DNA of 64,000 nt, taken from positions 430,481 to 494,480 of the forward strand of contig JBAZWC010000001.1 of NCBI GenBank assembly GCA_041660565.1, written 5' to 3'. Source of the DNA: Patescibacteria group bacterium. GTDB taxonomy: Bacteria; Patescibacteriota; UBA1384; CAJBMM01. A program made the translations under genes and the position numbers. Of the stretch, positions 1,895 through 61,998 are shown one piece after another; within the stretch, counting starts at the first letter, position 1, and the number at the start of each line of letters is the position of its first letter. The notes beneath the pieces were generated by a model. The model ran no database searches, was not told the DNA's origin, and saw only the letters and a program-made list of their open reading frames with translations.

Positions 1895-1916
1895 AGATTA
1901 TTGTCGATTCTATCTT

Positions 1917-1950
1917 TGTCATTCCGGGCTTGACCCGGAATCTATATAAA
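1917..1950. repeat. GTCATTCC hairpin repeat (tgtcATTCCGGGcttgaCCCGGAATctatataaa)
   Basis: Inverted repeat immediately 3' of the stop codon. Near-identical copies lie at 40572-40608 and, in reverse orientation, at 19515-19546 and 38401-38433. Confidence 0.7.
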
Positions 1951-2005
1951 GAATTAGCTCCGCACTTGGTCTAGCACGGAGCTGTTGGGGGTGACGGGTC
2001 GGCGC
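1943..2005. repeat. 63-bp direct repeat, copy 1 (tatataaagaattAGCTCCGcacttggtctagcaCGGAGCTgttgggggtgacgggtcggcgc)
   Basis: Read directly from the sequence: identical to 3076-3138. Contains the hairpin AGCTCCG/CGGAGCT. Confidence 0.85.
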
Positions 2006-2239
2006 AGCCACCACCATGCTAGTGATGCAGTCGAGTATCCGCCTCTCCTTTTTGCTGCTGACTTATAGCTGGCAGCAGATACAAGATATGTTGACCATAC
2101 AATAGCAAAGATAAATGGTTTTGACACAATGATATTTTGATCAATATGTGTAATTATGATATACTTACGCTGTTTTTCAACGATCGTTCGTTAACATACC
2201 TCTGACACTATCGTACGCCACCCGAAAGGACATACGGAT

Positions 2240-2980
2240 ATGACAGACCAGGTGTTGGACGAGCGTTTTCAGGCAATGAAAACGTTGTTCACGCAGTTGC
2301 CTGAGCTAGTGGAATACCTTGCTCGTAAAGGCAGCATACATTCACAGCAAGTCTGCCAAGCGATCACGGGGAAGCCGGACTATCGGACTGCGCTTGATAA
2401 TGCAGATGACCCATGGATGTTAGCAAGCTTCTTGCGCGTCGAGATGGACACCGAAGTCCTTAGGCTGATCAAGCAATACCTGAACGATCATCCGCAAAAG
2501 TGGCTTCTGGTCTATGCCCGTCCCGCCTGCACAACGGTGCTATGCCCGTACAAGGCAGAGAGCATGTACGCAGTGCTATATCGCAGTCTATCCGAGATGG
2601 TTGACGGTGGAGTTGTCGGTCTCGATGCTACCCAAGTCATCCGATCAATCCTGTGCGATCATGACCAACACGACGCACGACGTTCTTCTTACATGCTTGG
2701 TGCGGCGGCGGTGATCGTCGATCTAACCGAGCAATTGTGCCGTGCCAAGGCAGAACTGGCGGCGCTACGAGACACGCATGACCCAGCGGGTCAGAAACAG
2801 ACCCAATGCATGTTTTGCCCAGACACTGCTGTCTGGGAGCGACATACCCAATTCACTGGCATTCATCCGTTCTGCCAGAAGCATGCTGAGCTCGAATCCG
2901 ACTTCGGTAAGGATGGCGTCGACAACTTCTTCTGGGTGAGGGTTGAGGAGGTTTCCACGGAGGAAACGTGGTCAATCTAG
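2240..2980 (+). CDS. hypothetical protein (GC-rich; C-terminal Cys/His cluster CMFCPD...HPFCQKH)
   Basis: 246-aa ORF of roughly 58% GC in a low-GC genome. It is bounded on both sides by the 63-bp direct repeat. I recognise no fold. Confidence 0.5.
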   Translation: MTDQVLDERFQAMKTLFTQLPELVEYLARKGSIHSQQVCQAITGKPDYRTALDNADDPWMLASFLRVEMDTEVLRLIKQYLNDHPQKWLLVYARPACTTVLCPYKAESMYAVLYRSLSEMVDGGVVGLDATQVIRSILCDHDQHDARRSSYMLGAAAVIVDLTEQLCRAKAELAALRDTHDPAGQKQTQCMFCPDTAVWERHTQFTGIHPFCQKHAELESDFGKDGVDNFFWVRVEEVSTEETWSI

Positions 2981-3075
2981 GTATCGAAAGCAGATGCCAT
3001 GCCCAATAACCCAAGTGCCCATCGGATCGTCGCTTCCGATGGGCTTCGTTTTACGTCAAGAAATAAGTCTGAAAA

Positions 3076-3138
3076 ATATATAAAGAATTAGCTCCGCACT
3101 TGGTCTAGCACGGAGCTGTTGGGGGTGACGGGTCGGCG
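3076..3138. repeat. 63-bp direct repeat, copy 2
   Basis: Perfect copy of 1943-2005, lying 96 bp after the stop of the 2240..2980 gene. Confidence 0.85.
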
Positions 3139-3140
3139 CT

Positions 3141-3380
3141 TCATTGTGTCTTGTCTTCCAGGCAGAAAGGCACGCTGTTGCGCGCGATCTCTTCGTCATC
3201 GAACGGACCGAATTCATTACGATACTTGGGGGCGCGACGACGCACCGGTTTGTTGGCTACATCGTCAGGCACGTCTGGTTTTGGATCGGGTAGCTGCTTC
3301 AGCCGCGCCTTCTCCTTCATACGTGCGAGGCGGTGAACCAACCATGCAGCCACCACCACGCCAATGATGCTGTCAAGCAC
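3141..3380 (-). CDS. small membrane protein (N-terminal TM, basic/Pro-rich tail)
   Basis: 79 aa. Overlaps the upstream small membrane ORF by 8 nt, which suggests translational coupling. GC-rich. Confidence 0.4.
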   Translation of the reverse strand: MLDSIIGVVVAAWLVHRLARMKEKARLKQLPDPKPDVPDDVANKPVRRRAPKYRNEFGPFDDEEIARNSVPFCLEDKTQ

Positions 3381-3603
3381 GTGGATCTCCTTTCCGTCGC
3401 CTGGGCTCCCGGGGTGCTGGAATCCGGCGGGGTCGTTCTCCCGGTTCGTTGGTTGGTTCGCTGAGATAGGTGGTATGGGTCACGCCTCTTTTGATGATCG
3501 AGGTACCTTGTTTCGGCTTCCAAGTCACGAGCCACACACCAATGCCAGTTAGTGCAACAACGAAGGCAATCATGCCCAACGCCACAAACGCAGTCTGAAG
3601 CAT
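3373..3603 (-). CDS. small membrane protein (N-terminal TM, Arg/Pro-rich tail)
   Basis: 76 aa. Sits downstream of the repeated promoter-like box at 3692-3717. Confidence 0.4.
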   Translation of the reverse strand: MLQTAFVALGMIAFVVALTGIGVWLVTWKPKQGTSIIKRGVTHTTYLSEPTNEPGERPRRIPAPREPRRRKGDPRA

Positions 3604-3691
3604 CTCGCGCTCCTTGTCCTATCCGGTACTTATGAAAGTGCACTGCTTCAGCACCAGCTGAGATCTCCCTTCTGCGGAAGTCCTACCGTAG

Positions 3692-3717
3692 ACAGATACT
3701 ATCGTTATATCATATTT
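3692..3717 (-). promoter_or_regulatory. repeated promoter-like box cagatactatcgttatatcatatttt (copy 1)
   Basis: An identical 26-mer recurs at 4354-4379. Both copies lie 40-90 bp upstream of minus-strand genes. On the coding strand it reads aaaatatgatataacgatagtatctg. Confidence 0.45.
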
Positions 3718-3723
3718 TAATCC

Positions 3724-3781
3724 AATAAAGAATCAGCTCCGAGCGGGTGCACGGAGCTGAAAGAACCAGGAGTCGGGCGTC
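3724..3781. repeat. variant of the 63-bp boundary repeat (aataaagaatcAGCTCCGagcgggtgcaCGGAGCTgaaagaaccaggagtcgggcgtc)
   Basis: Same architecture as 1943-2005 (AGCTCCG hairpin followed by a G-rich tail). Lies between two minus-strand genes. Confidence 0.6.
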
Positions 3782-4317
3782 TACCGAGAGGGTTGGTAGT
3801 GTCCGAGCAACCACAGGAAAGCGAACACCTTGTGTTCGACGGGATCGCCCCGGATCACGGCCGTAAAGCGGCGAGCGCCTATCGCGTACTGGTCGAAGAT
3901 GAACTCGGCCGGAATGTCGTCCGGTGTCGGGTGGAGACTGGGGTCGAGTAGGCCCATGAAGTCGGCGGAAACCTCACTGGGGCTGTCAACCGAGATAATC
4001 CACTGGTCCCCGGGTTTCATCACCAGCGTCAGCCCGTCTTTCCGGATAACCTCTACTACCGGCATCATGACGCTACCAGGAATCTCGAATTCGGCAACCA
4101 CGTTCAGGCAACCATTCTCCGCCTGAGCGAACGCATCAAGGCCATTTATCCCCAGGGCATCCGGGACCGCACTCCTGACGAAGTTGAGGCATCTCCAGAA
4201 CTGGCTTCCCAGCCGTTCCAGAACCTCATCCGGCCGATTGGGGCAACTAATGCTGCCTGGAGGGTTGAGTGTCTTCCAGCCATGCAACGATCTACGATCT
4301 ATCTTGGTGCACCGCAT
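3781..4317 (-). CDS. hypothetical protein (GC-rich island)
   Basis: 178-aa ORF with no recognisable motif. Its upstream region carries copy 2 of the 26-mer box. Confidence 0.45.
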   Translation of the reverse strand: MRCTKIDRRSLHGWKTLNPPGSISCPNRPDEVLERLGSQFWRCLNFVRSAVPDALGINGLDAFAQAENGCLNVVAEFEIPGSVMMPVVEVIRKDGLTLVMKPGDQWIISVDSPSEVSADFMGLLDPSLHPTPDDIPAEFIFDQYAIGARRFTAVIRGDPVEHKVFAFLWLLGHYQPSR

Positions 4318-4353
4318 GATCGTATCCTCTCTGTGAAGGTTCTTGTCGTACGT

Positions 4354-4379
4354 CAGATACTATCGTTATATCATATTTT
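4354..4379 (-). promoter_or_regulatory. repeated promoter-like box (copy 2)
   Basis: Identical to 3692-3717. Confidence 0.45.
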
Positions 4380-4457
4380 CATAAAAAAAAGGGTTTGACG
4401 TCTACCTATTTTGTTTTTCGTGAAAAAATGTTAAAATATGAGTTAGGTGATAAATAA

Positions 4458-4534
<77 letters not shown>

Positions 4535-4704
4535 TATCGCACCATCTTGCGAAATCACTCATTTCAGGCACCCATCTTGCGGAATAACACATTTGGATAC
4601 TCGTTTCACTCGCATCCAATTACAGAATGCTCGCTTTGGTCGCATTCTGAGCGCGTTATTCTACGCAAGTGGATGCTCGCTCGGGCGACGATACGCCCTC
4701 GCTC

Positions 4705-4780
4705 GCACCCATAGCTCAACTGGCAGAGCAGCTCCCTCTTAAGGAGAAGGTTACAGGTTCGATTCCTGTTGGGTGCACCA
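4705..4780 (+). tRNA. tRNA-Lys (anticodon CTT)
   Basis: GCACCCATAGCTCAACTGGCAGAGCAG..ctcttaa..GGTTCGATTCC..GGGTGCACCA. Confidence 0.85.
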
Positions 4781-13160: not shown

Positions 13161-13859
13161 ATGTCATCAGCAAATACTGGCTCAACTGATAATATCCGTT
13201 TTGCCGTTTTGGCCGCCGATACGGTGCTGCTGACTTTTCAAAATGATAAATTATTTGTCAGATTAGTGTCTGTTAATCGCCCACCACATTTCCCCGAAGG
13301 GAGTAAAGGCTTGCCAGGGGGGCTACTATTTCCCGATGAAGTCGCAGAACAATCCGCTGCCAGACATATACAAACAAAAGGCGGAATTAATCCTGATAAA
13401 GTATACTTGGAGCAACTTTACACATTTAGTGAGGTTGATCGTGATCCACGTGGCCGGGTTGTCGCAGTAGCATATTTGGCCGTAGTACCATGGGATCGAC
13501 TTGATCCAATCGAAAAACAGAATAATAACGACGCATGGTGGAGTGAGGTTAGCAAAACTGGAAATCTAGCCTACGATCACAATAAAATTTTAGATATGGC
13601 TTTAACAAGACTTCGCCATCGTATTTCTTACTCAACGATTGTATGTAAGTTATTACCAAATGAATTTAGTTTGACCGAATTGCAAGATATTTTTTCGGTT
13701 GTATTATCAAAAAAACTTGATAAAAGAAATTTCCGAAAAAAAATACTCAAATTAGATATTCTGAAACCACTCTCCCACAAACAAGATAGTCGACCATACC
13801 GACCCGCGCGGCTATATACATACAAATCTTCGGACGTTGAAGAAATAGATATCATTTAA
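13161..13859 (+). CDS. nrtR: NrtR-family transcriptional regulator (Nudix-like ADP-ribose-binding domain plus C-terminal winged helix)
   Basis: Degenerate Nudix box GLLFPDEVAEQSAARHIQTKGG (RH instead of RE). C-terminal NEFSLTELQDIFSVVLSKKLDKRNFRKKI. Immediately upstream of nadM-nadV. AT-rich, like the host genome. Confidence 0.7.
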   Translation: MSSANTGSTDNIRFAVLAADTVLLTFQNDKLFVRLVSVNRPPHFPEGSKGLPGGLLFPDEVAEQSAARHIQTKGGINPDKVYLEQLYTFSEVDRDPRGRVVAVAYLAVVPWDRLDPIEKQNNNDAWWSEVSKTGNLAYDHNKILDMALTRLRHRISYSTIVCKLLPNEFSLTELQDIFSVVLSKKLDKRNFRKKILKLDILKPLSHKQDSRPYRPARLYTYKSSDVEEIDII

Positions 13860-13931
13860 ACATCGATCTCAATTTATTTTTATCTTGAAAGACCCTGAAA
13901 AGGGTTTTTTTGTTGGGGGGGTATTGACAAC

Positions 13932-13979
13932 GTGTAATTTATACACTATCTTAGAAATAGATAGTGTGATTTTTACACT
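13932..13979 (+). promoter_or_regulatory. cluster of three palindromes (candidate NrtR operators) overlapping a TTGACA-17-TATCTT promoter upstream of nadM
   Basis: GTGTAatttaTACAC (13932-13946), TATCTtagaaaTAGATA (13947-13963), AGTGTgatttttACACT (13963-13979). TTGACA at 13924-13929. Confidence 0.4.
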
Positions 13980-14006
13980 TAGCACATTAACAACAGGAGA
14001 TATACG

Positions 14007-14909
14007 ATGCCAAATGGTCCTGCAGCTGTGGGGGTAGTCGTTGCCCGATTTCAAGTGCCCGAGCTTACCCTCGGTCATCAAGCTCTGATTGAATTCGTAG
14101 AAAGCCAAGTCAAGCAAGTCTTGCTCGTACTCGGCACATCGGAAGCCTTTGCCACCAGCCGCAATCCCCTCAGCTTTGCCGCTAGACGGGAGATGGTTCT
14201 GGCATCGTACCCCAATGTCAAGGTGGTCAGTCTGGCTGATCACCCATCCGATTCCGTCTGGTCCACTAACCTGGATCAACTGATCAAAAAGATGTTCCCG
14301 GACCAGTCGGTTTCCCTCTACGGGTCGCGCGATTCCTTTCTAACCACCTACTCCGGCACCCTGCCTGTGGTTGACTTTCCCGCCTTACCTTGCCTGTCTG
14401 GAACCGAGAACCGTGTCGCCCTTCTAGACAACCCACCAACCAGCCCCGATTTCCGCAAGGGGATTGTCTACAGCCAAGTCGCCCGAGCCGGGATCCCCTA
14501 CGCCACTGTTGATATAGCAATCGTCGATGAGAACAAGGGGCTCGTTCTCTTGGGTGGCAAGCCAACTGACGGAGACCGCTATCGTTTCATCGGCGGTTTC
14601 GTTGATGTTAACGATGAATCCCTGGAACGAGCCGCAAAACGCGAGGCTTACGAAGAAACCGGCGGTCTCGAGATAGACGATCTCCGCTACTTCGGATCAG
14701 CGAAGGTCGTTGATTGGCGCTACCAAGGAACCGGCGATGGAATCTTGACTAGCTTCTTCGCCGCAACCTACATTTTCGGTTGCGCAAAGGCCCAGGACGA
14801 CATCGCACGAGTGAAATGGGTACCGATCAAGGAAGTCAAGCAGTACCTCGTCCCGGAACATCAGATTCTGGGCAGCATGCTCCTCAAACAGCACCATCTG
14901 ACACGATAA
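14007..14909 (+). CDS. nadM: bifunctional NMN adenylyltransferase / Nudix (ADP-ribose) pyrophosphatase, NadM-Nudix type
   Basis: N-terminal nucleotidyltransferase motif (ARFQ..ELTLGH). C-terminal Nudix box GGFVDVNDESLERAAKREAYEETGG. GC-rich. Confidence 0.8.
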   Translation: MPNGPAAVGVVVARFQVPELTLGHQALIEFVESQVKQVLLVLGTSEAFATSRNPLSFAARREMVLASYPNVKVVSLADHPSDSVWSTNLDQLIKKMFPDQSVSLYGSRDSFLTTYSGTLPVVDFPALPCLSGTENRVALLDNPPTSPDFRKGIVYSQVARAGIPYATVDIAIVDENKGLVLLGGKPTDGDRYRFIGGFVDVNDESLERAAKREAYEETGGLEIDDLRYFGSAKVVDWRYQGTGDGILTSFFAATYIFGCAKAQDDIARVKWVPIKEVKQYLVPEHQILGSMLLKQHHLTR

Positions 14910-14924
14910 GAAAGGGAGACGACC

Positions 14925-16313
14925 ATGTCTGACAACATCATCCTCCTCACCGACAGCTACAAGCCAACCCACGGCCCCCAGTACCCGCCACGCACCCAGA
15001 CTATCTTCTCGTTCTACGAGAGCCGGGGCGGCCTTTTCCCTGAGACCACCTTCTTTGGCCTCCAGTACCTGATCAAGCGATATCTGCTCGGTCAAGTGGT
15101 GACCGAGGAGAAGATCGAGGAAGCCTATGAAGTTCTGGGGAGCCACTTCGGCAACTCGAATTACATGAACCGGGCTGGCTGGGAATACATCCTGAAGGCA
15201 CACGGTGGACGGTTGCCAATCCTCATCCGGGCCATACCGGAGGGGACATCGATCCCAAACCACAACGTCCTCATGACGGTGCAGAACACCGACCCCAACG
15301 GCCTGCCATGGCTCACCAACTACCTGGAGACTCTGCTCTGCCAGGTCTGGTACCCCTGCACGGTCGCCACCCAGAGCCGGGCCATGCGCCAGGAGATCCT
15401 CCGCTTCCTCGAGGAAACGGGCGATCCCAGCCAAATCGACTTCAAGCTGCATGACTTCGGTTTCCGGGGTTCCACCAGCGTGGAGTCAGCTGGTATCGGC
15501 GGGGCGGCCCACTTGGTCAACTTCAAGGGGACTGACACCCTCGAAGCCATCATGGTCGCCCGTCGTTACTACGGCGAGAACATGGCCGGCTACTCGATCC
15601 CAGCCGCCGAGCACAGCACCATCACATCCTGGGGCAAAGAGCACGAGGCTGACGCTTACGCCAACATGCTCACGGCCTACCCCACCGGCACCGTAGCCGT
15701 AGTCTCGGACAGCTACGACGTATTCAACGCTTGTCGCTCCATCTGGGGTGGACAGCTCAAGGAGCGCGTTCTGGCCCGAGACGGCGTCCTCGTCATTCGC
15801 CCCGACAGCGGTAACCCCCCGGAAGTGGTCACCCAGGTCCTCGATATTCTCGGGCAGACCTTCGGCTTCACCACCAACGACAAGCAGTACAGGGTACTGC
15901 ACCCAAAGGTCCGGGTCATTCAGGGCGACGGCATCGACTACGCCATGATCACCCAGATCCTGACCGCTATGCGGCAGGCGGGATGGTCAGCTGATAATCT
16001 CGCCTTCGGCTCCGGCGGCGGTCTGCTCCAGAAGGTCAACCGAGACACCCAGCGTTTCGCCTTCAAGTGCTCAGCCGCTCAGATCGACGGAACCTGGCGC
16101 GATGTGATGAAGGACCCTGTCACTGATCCCGGCAAGCGTTCCAAGGCGGGCCATCTGGCCCTTGTACGCAACAGCGCCGGCGACTGGAAGACCATGCGCG
16201 AGTCAGACGCCGAAGCCATGGGATTCTCCAACCAACTAGTCCCTGTCTTCAAAGACGGCGCCCTATTGGTTGATTACAACTTCCAGTCCATTCGAGATCG
16301 CGCCGCGATGTAA
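14925..16313 (+). CDS. nadV: nicotinamide phosphoribosyltransferase (NAMPT/NadV)
   Basis: LLTDSYKPTH signature and full-length similarity to NadV. GC-rich. Starts 16 nt after the nadM stop. Confidence 0.85.
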   Translation: MSDNIILLTDSYKPTHGPQYPPRTQTIFSFYESRGGLFPETTFFGLQYLIKRYLLGQVVTEEKIEEAYEVLGSHFGNSNYMNRAGWEYILKAHGGRLPILIRAIPEGTSIPNHNVLMTVQNTDPNGLPWLTNYLETLLCQVWYPCTVATQSRAMRQEILRFLEETGDPSQIDFKLHDFGFRGSTSVESAGIGGAAHLVNFKGTDTLEAIMVARRYYGENMAGYSIPAAEHSTITSWGKEHEADAYANMLTAYPTGTVAVVSDSYDVFNACRSIWGGQLKERVLARDGVLVIRPDSGNPPEVVTQVLDILGQTFGFTTNDKQYRVLHPKVRVIQGDGIDYAMITQILTAMRQAGWSADNLAFGSGGGLLQKVNRDTQRFAFKCSAAQIDGTWRDVMKDPVTDPGKRSKAGHLALVRNSAGDWKTMRESDAEAMGFSNQLVPVFKDGALLVDYNFQSIRDRAAM

Positions 16314-16379
16314 GTCGCAGCACCTTCCGGCCTCCTATCGGGGGCCGGTTTTTCTGTAAATTTTTTTATTAGCTCGTTT

Positions 16380-16790
16380 ATGATGATTTTTTGGTATAGT
16401 GGGGGTATGGAAAAATATGAACTATGGTTCCGATTAGCGTATCGGGACATAATTTTAACCAAAAAAATGACCGCTGCCGTGCGTCCGGGAGATCGTCGTG
16501 CGCCAAATAACAAAGGAACTAGCATTGGCGAAAATGTGATTATTCGGGTGATGAAACTACCGGGTAATGAAGCTGAAAACATCAACCCGATATTTACAGA
16601 TGATAATATTCCTGCCAAAATAACGGCGATTGAGGTTAAGCGCTTGCAAGATGTTACGCCAGCGGATCTGATCGGATGTTCGGCAGATTGTTCGGATTGG
16701 CACGGCGTGGCAAACCAGCTAAGCTTAATCTACAACCAGGTATTTACCGGGCCCGAAGAAGTCAGCATCGTCCGGTTCGAATACACATAG
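16380..16790 (+). CDS. hypothetical protein (possible ASCH/PUA-like small domain)
   Basis: ORF only. The likely true start is at MEKYELW (16407). Confidence 0.3.
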   Translation: MMIFWYSGGMEKYELWFRLAYRDIILTKKMTAAVRPGDRRAPNNKGTSIGENVIIRVMKLPGNEAENINPIFTDDNIPAKITAIEVKRLQDVTPADLIGCSADCSDWHGVANQLSLIYNQVFTGPEEVSIVRFEYT

Positions 16791-16800
16791 GAGGACAGCC

Positions 16801-17790
16801 ATGATAATTCAGAAGTTGATCGATTCTAAGATGCTGACAGTTGCGTCAAAAGCGCAAGATAATCCGCCTAGTCTAGAAGGGTTGGATTTCTTCGCGGTTG
16901 GATACGCAGCCAAGGATTACCCCGCCCAGACGCCTCGGCTGTGGAACGCGCTTTACGCGCAATTTGGGCTGAATGTCCGCAATATCCGACTGATTGGATC
17001 ACCGGAGGTAGCGGGTGATGTATTCGATGCCTATCGGAATGACGACCGGTTTCTGGGCGGCGACGTCGGCGCTGGCATCAAGGACAAAGCATGGGTGATT
17101 GTCGATCAAATTGACCCGCTTGCCCGTGCAATGCAAGCGATCAACGTGGTAGTGCGAACAGACCACAAACTGGTCGGCTACAATACCGACGGCCATGGAT
17201 ATGTGGCCGGCTTGCAACAGGTAATGGATGCGACAGACAAAACCATCCTGATCTTAGGGGGTGGCGGCACCGCCAATGCCATCGCCTTTGCCGCAGCGGC
17301 CGCCAGGATGAAGCTGATCATCCTCAACCGCACCGTCAGCAAAGCAAATGACCTAGCCGTGCGAGTTAACCAGTTCTGCAACAAAGCGGTAGCGGTTTCA
17401 GGTGGGCGTGAGATGATATCAGCCGAAGCGCCGAAAGCCGACGTGATCGTTAGCGTAATCGACGATCCGCATTCACCGCTCGACCAATTCTCGGCACTGG
17501 GCGAGATTGAATTACCGGCAACACCAGACAGTCTGTCTCGAAACGTCGCCACCGCTACCAAAGTAATGCGAACGCTAAAGCCGGGTGTGCTGATTTCGGA
17601 TGTTGCGTTACGTGACAAGCCAACCGCAACGTTGCAGTTAGCAGCCAGCACCGGGCTAAAGACACAGGATGGCCGGCCGATGGTGCTAGAACAGGCCATT
17701 CTGGCGTTTTGGCTCGTCAACCAGCGGCTGCTCAAACCCCGCCGCATTACCCAAGCTCAAGTTGCAAAGGCGATGCGCCAAATCGCCTAA
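16801..17790 (+). CDS. shikimate/quinate 5-dehydrogenase family protein (AroE-like)
   Basis: GGDVGAGIKDK, NTDGHG, ILILGGGGTANAIAFA and ILNRTVSKANDLA blocks match AroE catalytic and Rossmann motifs. Confidence 0.65.
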   Translation: MIIQKLIDSKMLTVASKAQDNPPSLEGLDFFAVGYAAKDYPAQTPRLWNALYAQFGLNVRNIRLIGSPEVAGDVFDAYRNDDRFLGGDVGAGIKDKAWVIVDQIDPLARAMQAINVVVRTDHKLVGYNTDGHGYVAGLQQVMDATDKTILILGGGGTANAIAFAAAAARMKLIILNRTVSKANDLAVRVNQFCNKAVAVSGGREMISAEAPKADVIVSVIDDPHSPLDQFSALGEIELPATPDSLSRNVATATKVMRTLKPGVLISDVALRDKPTATLQLAASTGLKTQDGRPMVLEQAILAFWLVNQRLLKPRRITQAQVAKAMRQIA

Positions 17791-19514: not shown

Positions 19515-19546
19515 TCTATATAGATTCCGGATCAAGTCCGGAATGA
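19515..19546. repeat. GTCATTCC hairpin repeat (reverse orientation) abutting the gap stop codon
   Basis: tatagATTCCGGatcaagtCCGGAATgacat. Confidence 0.6.
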
Positions 19547-25769: not shown

Positions 25770-25842
25770 ATTTACCCCGTTCTGCGGGGTTAGTATTACT
25801 ATAACACATTTGGAGGATAGAAAATAGAGGGGATCACGACCT

Positions 25843-25910
25843 GTCATCCCCGCCCCGCTAAGCGGGGCTAAGGAACGCTTAGCGTCCCGACATTTTATTC
25901 GGGGATCCAG
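25843..25910. repeat. GTCATCCC/ACGCTTAGCGTCCC hairpin module
   Basis: CCCCGCcccgctaaGCGGGG and the ACGCTTAGCGT palindrome. The related GGGACGCTAAGCGTCCC recurs at 30775-30810. Confidence 0.5.
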
Positions 25911-25933
25911 AAAAAAACCTAGAAGTATTTTTC

Positions 25934-26020
25934 ATAGACTGCCCCGAAGTAAGTTCGGGATGGCTGGCGCCAGATTCCCACCGAAGTCTACCCCGAGCTT
26001 TGCCTCGGGGCGGGAATGAC
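25934..26020. repeat. 87-bp repeat, left copy (inverted relative to 30161-30248)
   Basis: atagactgccccgaag..cgggatggctggcgccagattccc..ctaccccgagctttgcctcggggcgggaatgac. Its reverse complement is about 90% identical to 30161-30248. Confidence 0.8.
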
Positions 26021-26029
26021 AACCTGCTC

Positions 26030-26057
26030 TTGACTCACACCACTGTTTTTGCCATAA
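26030..26057 (+). promoter_or_regulatory. sigma70-type promoter TTGACT-17-CATAAT
   Basis: ttgactcacaccactgtttttgccataat. The downstream leader ggcgttgatcttgaacaactt is shared with the unit starting at 26752. Confidence 0.6.
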
Positions 26058-26063
26058 TCGAGG

Positions 26064-26640
26064 TGTTAAGACGCATAGGGCGTTGATCTTGAACAACTTG
26101 CCCCATCGCAACCGTGGATACTGCTTACCTCTCGGAAGCGATGGCATCTCCTGCAAAAGTATTCAAGGAAGCCCTGTGCGCGTCGCCCCCACTCCCGAGC
26201 CCGGTCAAATGGGGCTCAAGTCCCGTTCAAAAAACGGAGAAGCGTATGAAGCAGTTCGTCGCCTAACCTATCAGCGGGGTGGTCTCGGCAACACGCACCT
26301 GTTGGATAGGTTGCGCGCCCGGACCATTAGATGTCCACTCTCGGTCGGCGTTGAGCGGATTAGATACCCGCTTCAGGTCGACCACGTCTGTTAGGATGTC
26401 GTTGTTTGTTGAACAGAGGCGCGGTGGGTGGGCGAACCCACCTCGCCTCTGGCCTCATCGTCACACATCATCCGCCAGCCGCGCAGGAAACCGCGCATCC
26501 AGCCCCACCTTTCTTCCTACATCCCTTTAAGCGAGGTTCGCCTCGTGTCCCAAGTCGCGCCCCCTCCCAGCCCGGGAGTGGGGCGCTTCTCATTTCCGTC
26601 GCCTTTTCACACCTCCGAGGTGTTTGCCGTTGCCACGGTT
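26064..26640 (+). ncRNA. candidate large GC-rich non-coding transcript, unit 1 (about 0.6 kb)
   Basis: About 62% GC. No ORF above 110 aa, and the small ORFs overlap in all frames. Strong promoter. Ends near the hairpin CACCTCCGAGGTG. Confidence 0.4.
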
Positions 26641-26704
26641 TCACCTCTGAGGAGTGAAATGTCTCTGTCCTCCGTCATCAGTCATCTGTTTTCCGACAGG
26701 GGTA

Positions 26705-26732
26705 TTGACAACCATTTTTATTCTGCTATAAT
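26705..26732 (+). promoter_or_regulatory. consensus sigma70 promoter TTGACA-16-TATAAT
   Basis: ttgacaaccatttttattctgctataat, followed by the leader ggcgttgaccttgaacaact. Confidence 0.7.
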
Positions 26733-26738
26733 GGATCA

Positions 26739-27874
26739 TGTACGCCGATAAAGGCGTTGACCTTGAACAACTGAAAATCCATATCCTCGTCCGGTTAGAG
26801 TCTGGTTAAACCGGCTTGTGGACAGGGTCCACCAGTGGTTCGGGATTGACGCCTTTTCGGCGTTTTGACAAGTTATTAGTCGTTTTTGCCCTAAAATCCA
26901 GCACGTCGAAAGGAAGCACGTCCATGAGGGTGCACGAGCCGTTCGTGAACTTGGAGAAGAACATATGCACGTTCGACGGCAGCACCGGCAACTCGATCAG
27001 CCCGGACGCCGGCCTCAGCGCGTGACCGCCTCCGGCGCCGCCTAGGCCACGGGCCTCGGCGCGCCCAACACGGCGCGTAGCGTGGTGCACGGGGCGCGGT
27101 GCGGCGAGGAGCGTCCTCCCCACCGCGCGCCCGTGGTCTCACAGCTGTTATCTTCCTTGAAGGGAGGCGTCGAGATGAGAGTCGCGACGTCGGGATTCAC
27201 CTAGCGGAAGCTAGGTCGGCCTACCCCGCGGTGTTCGGGCCAACCGGTTGGCAGAGGCACACCCTCTCGCCGGCTGGCGACACTGTGGGTCACTCCCTCC
27301 CCCGGCAGATCCGCCGGGAAAGGAGACACCCCCATGAACCTGCACCAAACCCTGGCCGCCATCAACGGCGGAGGGTAGCACGCGCTCGGCGGTTCGCGTC
27401 TGAGAGTCCGGGTACACCCCGGTTAAGATGAGGGGATCCGACACATAACGCGGATCGTGATCTAGTCGCACCTGTGAGAGTAAGAAGCTGTCCGTGGGCG
27501 GCTAACCCACGGAGCGCATCGATGGAATCTGCGCGAGCAGCGTCGCTGGCATAGGCCGGCGGTCATCTCTGCCGCAAAGCAGGTTCCGTCCTCGGGGCGG
27601 GCGTCGCACAGAGGGCCGTGATTCACTGGCCCCGTATGACACGCCTGGCCCGTCGCGACGCGGAGGGGAACTCGGCTGAACCAACCCCCTCCGCCTCGCC
27701 GTACGAAGTACAAACCGGCGCGTAGCGCGCCACACTACCAAATCGATCCTGGGCGGGACTCCTTCTCGCCCAACATGCCCGCAGCTTTGCATCCTGCGAC
27801 CATGGCTCGGCCGCTTCCCATCATCGGGGGGCGGCCGTTCTACTTTTTATACACCTTTTAGAGGTGTTTTTTTG
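26739..27874 (+). ncRNA. candidate large GC-rich non-coding transcript, unit 2 (about 1.1 kb, roughly 67% GC)
   Basis: Only short overlapping ORFs in all six frames. Two internal small ORFs carry strong SDs (gaaaggaag..ATG, 33 aa; aaaggaga..ATG MNLHQTLAAINGGG). Double terminator: GGCCGC..GCGGCC plus T-run, then ACACCTtttaGAGGTGT plus T7 (27852-27874). Confidence 0.4.
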
Positions 27875-27925
27875 ATTGAAAGAACGTAGCCCAAGCTTCT
27901 TGAACGTGAATTGGGAAACTATAAT

Positions 27926-28074
27926 GTCATTTCGACCCTAGGAGATTGTCAAATCGACTATGTTGGAGAAATCTGAGAAAGAATCCCTTCCCGTCTTTTC
28001 TTGAGATTTCTCCACCCTCGAGACAACGCTCGAGGCTCTGCCCGTAGGCTACGCCCGGAGGGAGTCGAAATGAC
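27926..28074. repeat. ~150-bp composite hairpin of the GTCATTTCGAC subfamily
   Basis: gtcatttcgaccct...agggagtcgaaatgac outer stem. Inner pair ggagaaatctgagaaagaa / ttcttgagatttctcc. Related to 55843-55908 and 56091-56137. Confidence 0.7.
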
Positions 28075-28167
28075 AGATTGTGGTCGATGGTTTGCAACAC
28101 ATAAGATGATCTAGTATTTTTGTTAAAAACGTCTTAGAATAATAATCGACAACATAAAGGAGTTTAT

Positions 28168-40571: not shown

Positions 40572-40608
40572 TGTCATTCCGGGCTAGACCCGGAATCTAT
40601 ATAAAAAA
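40572..40608. repeat. GTCATTCC hairpin repeat (near-identical to 1917-1950)
   Basis: ttgtcATTCCGGGctagaCCCGGAATctatataaaaaaag. Confidence 0.7.
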
Positions 40609-42662: not shown

Positions 42663-44030
42663 TTACTGCGACGCAAGGACCATGGTCTTCTTGACGGCCA
42701 CCGTTGCGGCGGTGATCGTCACCGGTTCGGCCACAGAGATCGTCTTGACGTTCAACTTGGCCCAGGCGGACTTGGTGCCGGCTGGGATTGTAACCGTGTA
42801 CGGCACAATCACGCCTGCCGAGGAACTGCTGAGGGTGATTACGATGCCCTCCGCCGGAGCCACCGTGTCTACACTAACCAGCACGGATGGAGTTGTCCCC
42901 GCCTTGACCACCGGTGGCAACGAGGCCAATCCGGTGATGCGGATGGGGGTAAGAACAAACGGTCGGAAGGAGTTGCTAATGGTGGCGTCTAGGAAACCAT
43001 TGGCGGCAATCCGTCCGTCCTCGCTGATACCCTTCCCAGCACAGATCAACACTGCGCTCTTAGGAATAAGATCATTGAGGTTGTACGCCTCGCCGTTTGC
43101 CCACAACATACCGGTGTCCGTGGGGGAATAGAACCTGGCGCCAACGATCAGATCATCGTTGTTGATAGCGAAGGGCCAACCCGGACCCAATACAAGATGA
43201 GCTGGAAGATCGTGCACCCCAGCTTCGTCCCAAAATGCGGGACCAAGACTGGTACGACCAACCACATGCCCACGGTCGTTTAGCGCTTCGCCGTGACACC
43301 GCTCATCCGGGGCGTGCCCGGGCAATCGTACCCAGCTGCCATTGGTGCTATCTGGGCCAGACGGGGTCCACACCGCATCGAACGTGACCCAGTTGGTCCA
43401 AAGCGTCCAATACCCGCCTGTTCCGAGCACTTGGCCTACAGCGTTGATCTGCTTCGCTGAGCTTGTATGTTCGCCGATATTCGAGTGAATGTTGAACGGT
43501 TGCCCGTCCTTCCTCCAGATGGTCGCAACAGTGTTGGGTGGAGTACCGTCCGGGGTATGATAGATGACAGACTCCCCGACGATGAACATCCTCGAGTTTA
43601 GGTCATATGCATAGCTACCAGAGATATTTCCTGATAGCACCCCCATCACTTTCTGTACAGTCCCGTCCCATGTGGAAGCTTGACTAGGGTAATAGCTGTA
43701 GCCGGCAATGACGCCCGCATCATTCACCCCTCTTCCGGATGAATAATGAATCGGGGATGTAGCATCAAGCACCCCCCTTCTCCAGACCAACAGCTTGTTG
43801 TTGTAGCTTTGGTTCCAGTACCCAACGATGGTATCTCCACTGGGGCTCATCCCAGTGATACTGTAAAACGGGCTACTATAGATTGGGTTGACATATGGAG
43901 TGGGCAACACCTTGGCGGTGTAGCTAACCCCAACTACCGGAGGAGTAGAAGCGTGTGCCGCAATGGCCAAAGCGGCAACGACAACGATGCCAACCACAAC
44001 CGAAACGAACCGAGAAAGCTTGCCGCTCAT
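42663..44030 (-). CDS. secreted HAF-family extracellular-repeat protein (GC-rich)
   Basis: Signal peptide from MSGKLSRF (ATG at 44030, RBS aaagga). Repeated G..NDxG.VxG motifs (GVNDAGVIAGYSY, INAVGQVLGTGG, ALNDRGHVVGRTS). About 60% GC. Confidence 0.6.
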   Translation of the reverse strand: MSGKLSRFVSVVVGIVVVAALAIAAHASTPPVVGVSYTAKVLPTPYVNPIYSSPFYSITGMSPSGDTIVGYWNQSYNNKLLVWRRGVLDATSPIHYSSGRGVNDAGVIAGYSYYPSQASTWDGTVQKVMGVLSGNISGSYAYDLNSRMFIVGESVIYHTPDGTPPNTVATIWRKDGQPFNIHSNIGEHTSSAKQINAVGQVLGTGGYWTLWTNWVTFDAVWTPSGPDSTNGSWVRLPGHAPDERCHGEALNDRGHVVGRTSLGPAFWDEAGVHDLPAHLVLGPGWPFAINNDDLIVGARFYSPTDTGMLWANGEAYNLNDLIPKSAVLICAGKGISEDGRIAANGFLDATISNSFRPFVLTPIRITGLASLPPVVKAGTTPSVLVSVDTVAPAEGIVITLSSSSAGVIVPYTVTIPAGTKSAWAKLNVKTISVAEPVTITAATVAVKKTMVLASQ

Positions 44031-44308
44031 CGTACTCGTCCTTTCTGTAGCACTAGCAGAGACGTGTTTCGACAGCCAAAACGCAAACTTGCGCGGGCGG
44101 GGTGCCCGCAGCACTTCTACATCGTGTTTTGACCCTTTCGATAGCGCGTAGTGTGGGTGTCCACAGGAAAAACGTACGCGCGAATAGTAGAACGGCATCC
44201 CCCGTAGTCGATTGTTAACGTTCGACCCGAGTATTTGCCTGATTATACCACATTTTGTCAAATGTATCTAGTTTGTAATTTATTTGCAAACCAACTACAT
44301 TTATTTCT

Positions 44309-55842: not shown

Positions 55843-55908
55843 TGTCATTTCGACCCTGCGAGAATGTCAATTCGAGCGTGTTGGAGAAATCTAAGGAAGA
55901 ATCCCATC
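55843..55908. repeat. GTCATTTCGAC subfamily repeat
   Basis: cttgtcatttcgaccctgcgagaatgtcaattcgagcgtgttggagaaatctaaggaagaatccc. Related to 27926-28074. Confidence 0.6.
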
Positions 55909-56090
55909 CACAATTTTAAATTTTAAAGGCAAAATTTTAAATGAATAAGTACCGAATGATTAAATTTTAAATGGTTCCTTATTAAGTCATTAAAAATTGG
56001 CAACCATTCATTTGATAATCTCGAGCGTTCCGCGAGTGATTTCGATGCTAAGCATCTAATTAAAAATTAATAATTTATAATTCTTTTTTT

Positions 56091-56137
56091 GCAGATTTCT
56101 CCACCCTCGACTTGAATATCGAGGAGTCGAAATGACA
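56091..56137. repeat. GTCATTTCGAC subfamily repeat (reverse orientation)
   Basis: cagatttctccaccctcgacttgaatatcgaggagtcgaaatgac. Confidence 0.6.
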
Positions 56138-61503: not shown

Positions 61504-61998
61504 GTAGTCTAAATCTTTTCGGATCATCGCCCCTAACGGGGAGGAAAGTCCGGGCACCTGATAAGCGTTGTACTGACGCATCTGCTAGCATTAGTTAGCA
61601 GCGAAGTCTAGCTGCCCCGTCATTCGACAGGGCAAGGGAATAGTGCAACAGAAAATACACAGCCAGCCAATGCGTTGCATTGGAAATTCGAAATTCTAAA
61701 TTCCAATTTATAAACATAAGGAAATTTGTTTATAGGCTGGATTCCCGCCTGCGCGGGAATGACGCCTCGAGTTTCTAGTGCAGCGCGTCGGGGGCAAAGG
61801 TGAAAACGTGTGGTAAGAGCGCACGCGCTTTAGCAGCAATGCTAATTTGTGAAAACCCTGCATGGTGCAAGTCTGGTGGACCATTCGCTTCAATTGTGCT
61901 TATCCAAGAAGCGGGTTTGGCCCAGACGCGTAGATAGATGATGGTCAAGTATTTGTTTACAAATACTACAGAACCCGGCTTATAGAAACGGTTTAGAC
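61504..61998 (+). ncRNA. rnpB: RNase P RNA (bacterial type A) with an enlarged P12 region
   Basis: Promoter -10 TATAAT at 61494-61499. P4 5' strand GGAGGAAAGTCCGGGC (61539-61554). AGTGCAACAGAAA. GGTAAGAGCGCAC (61815-61827). P4 3' strand ACAGAACCCGGCTTA (61965-61979). P1 pairing GTCTAAA/TTTAGAC. Terminator AATGACGCtgttAGCGTCATT plus T-run at 62001-62030. Confidence 0.85.
61739..61763. repeat. GTCATTCC-family hairpin inside the rnpB P12 expansion
   Basis: ggATTCCCGCctgcGCGGGAATgac, preceded by an about 55-nt AT-rich insert (aaattcgaaattctaaattccaatttataaacataaggaaatttgtttatag). Confidence 0.7.

Follow-up and report, generated by a model that had tools for sequence, protein, structure and literature searches.

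Phage morons, first named in HK97/HK022, are characterized by their own promoter, their own terminator and a deviant GC content (reviewed in PMC3594210). Here, we describe a compositionally foreign islet of 2.4 kb (positions ~1943-4391) that is located between an LtaS-like gene and the promoter of a tRNA-Arg gene in the genome of an uncultured "Patescibacteria group bacterium". The window, that is the whole stretch of DNA analysed, covers 64 kb within a 516-kb contig of this metagenome-assembled genome (MAG) from the candidate phyla radiation (CPR), and the contig is carried by both JGI and NCBI. We favour, with moderate confidence, the explanation that the locus is a horizontally acquired islet of moron-like autonomous units, the promoter and terminator modules of which were copied locally through segmental duplication, with deletion and decay as later steps. 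The most likely donor is a phage or another mobile element, as indicated by a phage-type domain in one of the encoded proteins, ORF246.

Similar to phage morons, each unit of the islet has its own promoter-like and terminator-like signal, as identified in silico, and both its GC content and its oligonucleotide composition deviate from the surroundings (54-58% GC in the open reading frames, ORFs, against 44%). The ORFs are also small and accessory, and one of the proteins has a phage-typical domain. However, the islet is not embedded in a recognisable (pro)phage and does not represent a moron in the strict sense. It also differs from phage morons in that three to four units with near-identical regulatory modules are clustered, and in that the host is a Patescibacteria MAG. 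The module boundaries of mosaic phage genomes provide another point of comparison, as they contain conserved intergenic "linker" sequences that are used for homologous exchange. Likewise, the identity between segments of the islet switches sharply, from 100% in a repeat, here called R, to 77%, and does so exactly at a gene boundary, but both partners are located within a single 2.4-kb locus.

Anatomy and composition of the islet

The islet contains the following features, with positions given in the coordinates of the window:

1943-2005, minus strand: R1, a 63-nt predicted terminator module, 100% identical to R2
2004-2051, minus strand: putative remnant of an ORF79 paralogue, consisting of an AAGGAG ribosome-binding site (RBS) and about 15 codons, with the start codon lost and fused directly to R1
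2137-2180, both strands: divergent promoter-like pair, with TTGATC-17-TATACT and an upstream TG on the plus strand, directed towards ORF246, and TTGAAA-16-CATAAT on the minus strand, directed towards a decayed unit
2240-2980, plus strand: ORF246 (WC773_02115), RBS AAAGGA, with a C-terminal Cys/His domain at residues ~186-240 (nt ~2795-2959)
3017-3044, plus strand: predicted intrinsic terminator of ORF246 itself, a 10-bp stem followed by TTCGTTTTAC (-20.6 kcal/mol, z = -4.26)
3077-3139, minus strand: R2, predicted terminator module of the ORF76-ORF79 operon, which begins 2 nt past the stop of ORF79
3141-3380, minus strand: ORF79 (WC773_02120), hydrophobic N-terminus and charged tail, GTG start with AAGGAG 6 nt upstream
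3373-3603, minus strand: ORF76, single-pass membrane protein with a transmembrane (TM) helix at residues 5-23 and a basic Pro/Arg-rich tail
3693-3730, minus strand: predicted promoter box, copy 1 (identical 26-nt core at 3693-3718), the coding strand of which reads AAAATATGATATAACGATAGTATCTG
3725-3760, minus strand: R3, diverged copy of the predicted terminator (hairpin at 3735-3758), 3' of ORF178
3781-4317, minus strand: ORF178 (WC773_02125), orphan protein, RBS GAGGA
4354-4391, minus strand: predicted promoter box, copy 2 (identical core at 4354-4379), at the right edge of the islet

Sequence comparisons confirm the perfect 63-nt repeats, the diverged third copy and the identical 26-nt boxes that were described in the initial annotation of the locus. 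All of these features exist, although the second 63-nt copy and the first box had each been placed one base off. The proteins with locus tags WC773_02115, WC773_02120 and WC773_02125 are annotated as hypothetical by NCBI, on the contig that carries MFA6082193.1-MFA6082195.1, and ORF76 is called as a gene in the JGI and Logan annotations.

The GC content is 52.9% for positions 1943-4391 and 54.9% for positions 2240-4317, as compared to a background of 43.9%, and the 300-nt windows peak at 0.60. The value of about 58-60% that had been given for the block was thus overstated, since the measured values are 53-55% overall. The GC content of the ORFs also stands out against the LtaS-like gene, which has a GC content of 40%. 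The strand-symmetrised trinucleotide signature of the islet correlates with that of the rest of the window at r = 0.31, while random background chunks of equal size give r = 0.90+/-0.06, with a minimum of 0.61. This signature, together with genes that have no relatives elsewhere and the phage-type domain in ORF246, supports the earlier suggestion of a recent horizontal gene transfer.

The block could also consist of native, fast-evolving genes that are specific to this CPR lineage and were not acquired. CPR genomes contain many orphan genes, there are several other GC-rich blocks in this genome, and the promoters of the islet, as read from the sequence, resemble the neighbouring tRNA promoter in being AT-rich and in having an extended -10. 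However, the trinucleotide signature falls far outside the background range, a part of ORF246 is a domain that is otherwise seen in phage contigs, and no homologue was found even at the corresponding loci of relatives that are ~50% identical. We therefore consider a native origin improbable and infer that the block was transferred into this genome.

Repeat R as a predicted terminator module

The repeat R folds in a strand-specific manner. The minus strand forms a perfect 11-bp stem with a 6-nt loop (-17.9 kcal/mol, z = -4.07), which is followed by AAUUCUUUAUAUA, while the folding of the plus strand is unremarkable (z = 0.18). The diverged copy R3 also forms a hairpin on the minus strand (-21.5 kcal/mol, z = -3.87), here followed by GAUUCUUUAUU. 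The hairpin begins 22-23 nt past the stops of ORF79 and ORF178, and R thus combines the sequence characteristics of a rho-independent terminator: a GC-rich stem-loop, a U-rich tract and a co-oriented stop codon just upstream. The hairpins assigned to the three intact units (R2, R3 and 3017-3044) are similar to each other, with energies of -18 to -21.5 kcal/mol, z-scores of about -4 and U-rich tails. The strand-specific fold, the U-rich tail and the placement after the minus-strand stops identify R, by structure, strand and position, as the predicted intrinsic terminator module of the minus-strand units.

The motif AGCTCCG-N(4-30)-CGGAGCT occurs three times in the window, always within the islet, as compared to 0.00 occurrences expected from shuffled sequences. 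Viewed as a dispersed repeat of the repetitive extragenic palindrome (REP) or miniature inverted-repeat transposable element (MITE) type, R has three copies in the 64 kb examined, all of which are confined to the islet. Neither R nor the 26-nt box was found in the viral, metagenome and representative-genome collections, where exact-pattern scans gave chance matches only and blastn revealed no extended similarity. A search for the 63-nt repeat in other genomes and metagenomes, as had been proposed, thus recovered chance pattern matches only. The initial annotation had also considered that the repeat may be a common terminator in a region of conserved synteny. This view agrees with the data in part: R is terminator-like, but it is specific to the islet within the window, and three relatives with a ~50% identical LtaS-like gene are not syntenic.

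A putative decayed fourth unit beside ORF246

The segment adjoining R1 provides an explanation for the presence of a repeat on either side of ORF246. Positions 2004-2051 are 77% identical to positions 3346-3393, which hold the RBS and the first ~15 codons of ORF79, and the translated remnant reads LDCITSMVVAA, as compared to LDSIIGVVVAA in ORF79. In the alignment of R1 and the remnant, ~206 nt of the ORF79-type gene body are missing, between a 2-nt GC microhomology. The sequence thus suggests that R1 is the terminator of a decayed fourth unit, paralogous to the ORF79 unit. With R1 placed in the decayed unit and R2 in the ORF76-ORF79 operon, neither of the two repeats is a boundary site that belongs to ORF246 itself. 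It had been described as a cassette bracketed by direct repeats, but the flanking repeats are better explained as the terminators of its neighbours, and ORF246 is followed by a separate predicted terminator at 3017-3044.

R1 and R2 are identical at 63 of 63 positions, while the adjoining 48 homologous nucleotides are only 77% identical, which calls for a later exchange confined to R. This exchange could represent gene conversion, recombination between the diverged paralogous units, or integration through R of a segment that consists of one copy of R and the sequence between the repeats, here called B.

Predicted promoter boxes and proposed autonomous units

No identity over 26 nt between the two boxes is expected by chance (0 expected), and the boxes remain similar, at 89%, over 38 nt. 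The boxes contain the core TATGATATA, which is of the extended -10 type (TGnTATAAC/TATACT). This core occurs four times in the 64 kb, against 0.62 expected, and three of the occurrences are located 48-100 nt upstream of ORF246, ORF76-79 and ORF178 in the correct orientation. The copy upstream of ORF246, at 2155-2163, is placed back to back with the minus-strand TTGAAA-16-CATAAT, which spans 2180 down to 2153. Based on the consensus, the 26-nt box is predicted to contain the promoter and the transcript start of the minus-strand units, and transcripts would start ~7-10 nt downstream of TATGATATAAC. Well-placed Shine-Dalgarno sequences can be read for the units (AAAGGA, AAGGAG, AAGGAG and GAGGA). 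The reiterated box had been described as a promoter box that, together with the repeats, delimits the island. Its features are those of a promoter module, the core of which is also found 5' of ORF246.

The islet would thus be built of self-contained units, each with a promoter, an RBS, one or several genes and a hairpin terminator. The first unit would be the plus-strand ORF246 together with a terminator of its own, the second the coupled ORF76-ORF79 pair on the minus strand, and the third ORF178, also on the minus strand, with TATGATATA as the core common to these three intact units. A fourth, decayed unit would extend from 2180 to 1943 on the minus strand and have kept its promoter, its RBS, ~15 codons and its terminator. 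Segmental duplication, with subsequent deletion and recombination, may have increased the number of modules inside the islet, and the units would act like phage "morons" in that they are expressed from their own signals whatever the context.

Orphan genes in the islet

The RBSs are well placed, and the GC content at the three codon positions (GC1/2/3) follows the coding-type pattern GC1>GC2<GC3 in ORF246 (0.61/0.39/0.61), ORF79 (0.69/0.38/0.62) and ORF178 (0.61/0.43/0.70), indicating that the ORFs of the islet are real genes. ORF76 shares 8 nt with ORF79 (GTGCTTGA), and since the AAGGAG RBS of ORF79 lies within the end of ORF76, translational coupling of the two genes is plausible. They had been described as two coupled small membrane ORFs, which agrees with this arrangement and with the clear TM helix in ORF76, while ORF79 is only borderline hydrophobic, with a shorter hydrophobic stretch at its N-terminus. 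As a guess, the two proteins may be small membrane effectors of a holin-, toxin- or exclusion-like type.

The full-length ORF246 and ORF178 proteins each match only themselves among 5.8 billion proteins, and ORF178 also has no match in the viral contigs. Exact-sequence lookup showed that ORF76 is alone in its 90% cluster and that the cluster of ORF79 consists of two 79-aa entries, both from this contig. None of the four proteins gave a significant match in Pfam, PHROGs or PADLOC, nor did ORF246 and ORF178 in NCBIfam, and searches of the islet proteins against PDB sequences gave no match. No PHROG match was found below E = 0.018, and none to any annotated phage function. Likewise, no RNA family was identified in the islet with Rfam at gathering and E-value thresholds. 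The AlphaFold single-sequence models were too poor for use (predicted local distance difference test scores of 39 and 43.5), and Foldseek searches with these poor models against BFVD gave no match at E <= 0.001. The earlier statement that the proteins have no recognisable fold holds for all four of them, with the exception of the C-terminus of ORF246, which is part of a large and as yet unnamed family of domains.

The Cys/His domain of ORF246

A phmmer search with ORF246 against 1.84 billion representative proteins identified 174 proteins at E <= 1e-3, with the best E-values at 1e-9. All matches align to residues ~186-240, except for one protein (P0194), which shows a weak, repetitive match to the N-terminal region (E = 7e-6). 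The alignment of the family has the signature C-x2-C...W-x-R-x-TQF[AS]G-x-HP[FY]C-x2-HA...DFG...W, and residues 186-240 of ORF246 retain all of the invariant columns (C, R, T, F, C, W). The domain is ~50 aa long and present in at least 174 representative proteins, where it usually forms a stand-alone protein of 55-150 aa encoded in phage small-gene arrays. It was identified at 81 viral loci in IMG/VR, many of them on contigs of 90-176 kb, which show dense same-strand arrays of tiny genes. Neighbouring genes at these loci include PHROG-matching genes for RNA ligase, HNH endonuclease and phosphoesterase. In two viral homologues, the match extends back to residue 143 of ORF246, while a search of the viral contigs with the N-terminal part of ORF246 gave no match.

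The domain is absent from Pfam, PHROGs, NCBIfam and PDB, and it gave only sub-threshold matches to assorted zinc-ribbon families. It was also not found by tblastn in cultured phages and plasmids at the sensitivity used, even with a typical family member as the query. The C-terminus of ORF246 thus represents an unnamed and uncharacterised domain family that is widespread in uncultivated phages. Our guess is that ORF246 is a zinc-binding protein. A role as a rolling-circle Rep protein was also considered and dropped, as inspection by eye revealed no HUH or YxxK motifs.

Relationship to classical mobile elements

The islet shares some characteristics with described mobile elements. As in tRNA-adjacent genomic islands and islets, a segment of foreign composition that is absent from relatives is inserted beside a tRNA gene. 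As in integron attC cassettes, short ORFs alternate with copies of an imperfect palindrome of ~60 nt. The nearby tRNA gene and the hairpin repeats at the gene ends would fit a classical site-specific element, whether a cassette array of the integron type or an integrative island that targets tRNA genes and has lost its integrase.

However, the islet is only 2.4 kb long and located 5' of tRNA-Arg, not in its 3' end. There is no duplication of the tRNA sequence at the islet and no attachment-site (att) repeat derived from the tRNA 3' end, and the comparison of the islet borders for att-like repeats yielded only 7-8-mers, the longest common word being 8 nt. No recombinase or transposase family was matched in the islet or in the neighbouring ORFs in family scans, which covered the larger ORFs of the window, and neither an integrase nor the integron integrase IntI was among the ORFs scanned. 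R is a perfect 11-bp stem with canonical terminator geometry and has neither the R''/L''-L'/R' layout of attC sites nor a GTTRRRY core. Its GTTGGGG and CCCCAAC sequences do not fit GTTRRRY and RYYYAAC, and they are not paired. Furthermore, the units have promoter-like boxes of their own and are encoded in both orientations, unlike the promoterless, co-oriented cassettes of an integron. For these reasons, both the integron cassette array and the tRNA-targeted integrative element were rejected, and we regard a classical element of either kind as extremely improbable. The mobile cassette array delimited by repeats, one of the possibilities proposed in the initial annotation, is not supported, and we interpret the repeats as reused terminator and promoter modules.

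The left junction in an independent assembly

The islet is flanked by the following features:

137-1894: LtaS/sulfatase-like membrane protein with many CPR homologues, GC content 40%
1918-1942, no strand assigned: host palindrome GTCATTCCGGGCTTGACCCGGAATC, a member of a dispersed family, at the left edge of the islet (hairpin of -12.2 kcal/mol)
4458-4534, plus strand: tRNA-Arg(TCG), the flanking host gene, with the islet on its 5' side
4705-4780: tRNA-Lys

Synteny downstream of the LtaS-like gene is not kept in the three relatives mentioned above, which have different genes at this site. An empty site could therefore not be reconstructed from the loci of the LtaS-like homologues, the closest of which are ~50% identical. 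The other neighbours are host genes for a CHAP-domain protein, an ABC transporter, a GDSL lipase, GAPDH and others. Between tRNA-Arg and tRNA-Lys lies a spacer of 170 nt (4535-4704), which contains a 23-nt direct repeat (4542-4564 and 4572-4594, 87% identical) as well as a long inverted repeat seen by eye (CATCTTGCGGAATAAC ... GTTATTCTACGCAAGTGGATG), and which may be structured.

Position 1942 is the end of the dispersed host palindrome (GTCATTCCGG..CCGGAATC). The tail of the palindrome family (CTATATAAA) overlaps the first bases of R, and in the form ...GGAATCTATATAAA this tail overlaps the first 8 nt of R1. Other copies of the palindrome are located at 19524, 34325, 38408, 40573 and 61741. 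The family has the form [GTC]ATTCC(C/G)G-loop-C(C/G)GGAAT[GAC], often followed by CTATAT(A/G)AAA, and the copy at 40573 continues with ...GGAATCTATATAAAAAAAGAAGG, which resembles the left and right flanks of the islet joined to each other.

To describe the independent assembly, we refer to the sequence upstream of the islet as A and to the sequence downstream of R2 as C. The independent assembly (Logan, k = 31) of run SRR18595301 covers this genome well, with a neighbouring contig of 14.1 kb. A plain A-R-B-R-C chromosome should give a contig for A that reaches 1972, R as a separate node, and a contig for B over 1976-3106. Instead, the upstream contig stops exactly at 1942, and a repeat family is found at its other end as well. 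In contig L001, which spans 1976-3139, the first and the last 30 nt are identical, which corresponds to the k-1 overlap. Contig L002 spans 3110-4481 and links the right side of the islet to tRNA-Arg. This pattern could be technical, or it could reflect a tandem or circle of B+R, heterogeneity at the junction, or a mis-join.

One reading of these data is a recombination-active cassette, in which the 1,134-bp B+R segment (2006-3139, containing the remnant, ORF246 and one R) excises, circularises or is tandemly amplified through R x R recombination, either by general homologous recombination on the 63-nt repeats or by a dedicated, still unknown site-specific system. The identity of R at 63 of 63 positions against 77% in the adjoining sequence, which implies a recent exchange confined to R, is consistent with such activity, as are the identical 30-nt ends of L001, the compaction of R with B, and the lack of the A|R1 junction in all contigs despite the good coverage. 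On the other hand, no recombinase or transposase family was matched in the islet, the predicted terminator role fully explains R, and R3 has diverged. A purely technical loss of junction k-mers beside the dispersed palindrome family would also account for the shape of L001. Moreover, a 1.1-kb circle would have no recognisable replication function, and R gave chance pattern matches only in the viral, metagenome and genome collections. An active cassette is for these reasons unlikely, and the more specific proposal that B+R is an actively excising or amplifying mini-cassette of a CPR bacterium, in which R doubles as a recombination site with no known recombinase, is very unlikely. If this proposal were true, the population would be heterogeneous at 1942|1943, and both the identical copies of R and the cyclic Logan contig would be traces of recombination that is still under way.

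The same junction could be an assembly artefact, caused by a mis-join at 1942|1943 or by a repeat-mediated loop that was threaded into the chromosome path, so that the adjacency of A and R1 or the two copies of R would not exist in any single molecule. The exact halt of the upstream contig at the end of a dispersed palindrome, the sequence TATATAAA that the palindrome tail and R have in common at the junction, and the missing junction k-mers in the k = 31 contigs all point in this direction. However, the right side of the islet is independently contiguous with tRNA-Arg and with the region upstream of it in L002 (3110-4481), L001 contains the R-B as well as the B-R junction, and the 516-kb contig is carried by both JGI and NCBI. 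An artefact of this kind is accordingly improbable as well.

A few observations weigh against the favoured interpretation of a horizontally acquired islet of autonomous units. Promoter and terminator function are predicted from consensus only, and the U-tract of R is interrupted (AAUUCUUUAU), which makes the efficiency of termination uncertain. The probability that R would remain identical after a single duplication, given the divergence of the adjoining sequence, is 0.77^63 = 7e-8. No phage structural, integrase or replication gene is located nearby, and the flanks consist of ordinary host genes. The viral loci that carry the Cys/His domain have a median GC content of 41.5%, and the islet is GC-richer than most of them. 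Finally, R is reached from B alone in the simplified Logan graph, and the A|R1 junction is missing from all of the contigs.

Two MITE-like elements were also observed in the window (27926-28075 and 55844-56137), with the terminal inverted repeats TTGTCATTTCGACCC...GGAGTCGAAATGACA and the common internal sequence GTTGGAGAAATCT...AGATTTCTCCACCCTCGA. One of the Logan contigs (L017, positions 1-60) breaks inside a related MITE-like copy.

Other GC-rich blocks in the window

Positions 13161-17790 hold a GC-rich (55-60%) NAD-salvage cluster between tRNA-Glu and tRNA-Thr, with genes for an NrtR-like regulator, a NUDIX protein, NAMPT and a shikimate-DH-like protein. This cluster is contiguous with its host flanks in the Logan assembly and is probably another acquired block. 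On the minus strand, positions 42663-44261 encode a 532-aa ORF with a GC content of 55% and no Pfam match, which adjoins tRNA-Pro and tRNA-Arg and represents the fourth GC-rich, tRNA-adjacent block in the 64 kb.

Another such block, at 25780-27880, covers ~2 kb with a GC content of 56-63% beside tRNA-Asp, and contains no convincing ORF and no Rfam match. It has strong promoter-like sites at ~26030-26060 (TTGACT-17-CATAAT) and ~26706-26735 (TTGACA-17-TATAAT). Each of these is followed by the common leader GGCGTTGAYCTTGAACAACT, which forms a direct repeat (26047-26098 and 26721-26772, 71% identical), and the block terminates at a hairpin with a T-run near 27845-27875. This block may represent two large non-coding RNAs of high GC content, or foreign DNA that has decayed. 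In addition, positions 61511-61998 on the plus strand encode the RNA of a bacterial class A RNase P, which contains a long insertion (488 nt as compared to a 367-position model, 125 bits).

Implications for the CPR genome

Rather than a new system of mobile cassettes, the locus looks like an ordinary horizontally acquired islet. The second assembly hints at a structural polymorphism which, if real, would reveal repeat-mediated gene-copy dynamics in an uncultured episymbiont; otherwise, the locus is an ordinary one. The islet provides a clean, small example of foreign accessory genes in a streamlined CPR genome, in which such genes would arrive as autonomous promoter-gene-terminator units, the signals of which are duplicated locally. 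The analysis has also uncovered a Cys/His domain family that is as yet unnamed and occurs widely among uncultivated phages.

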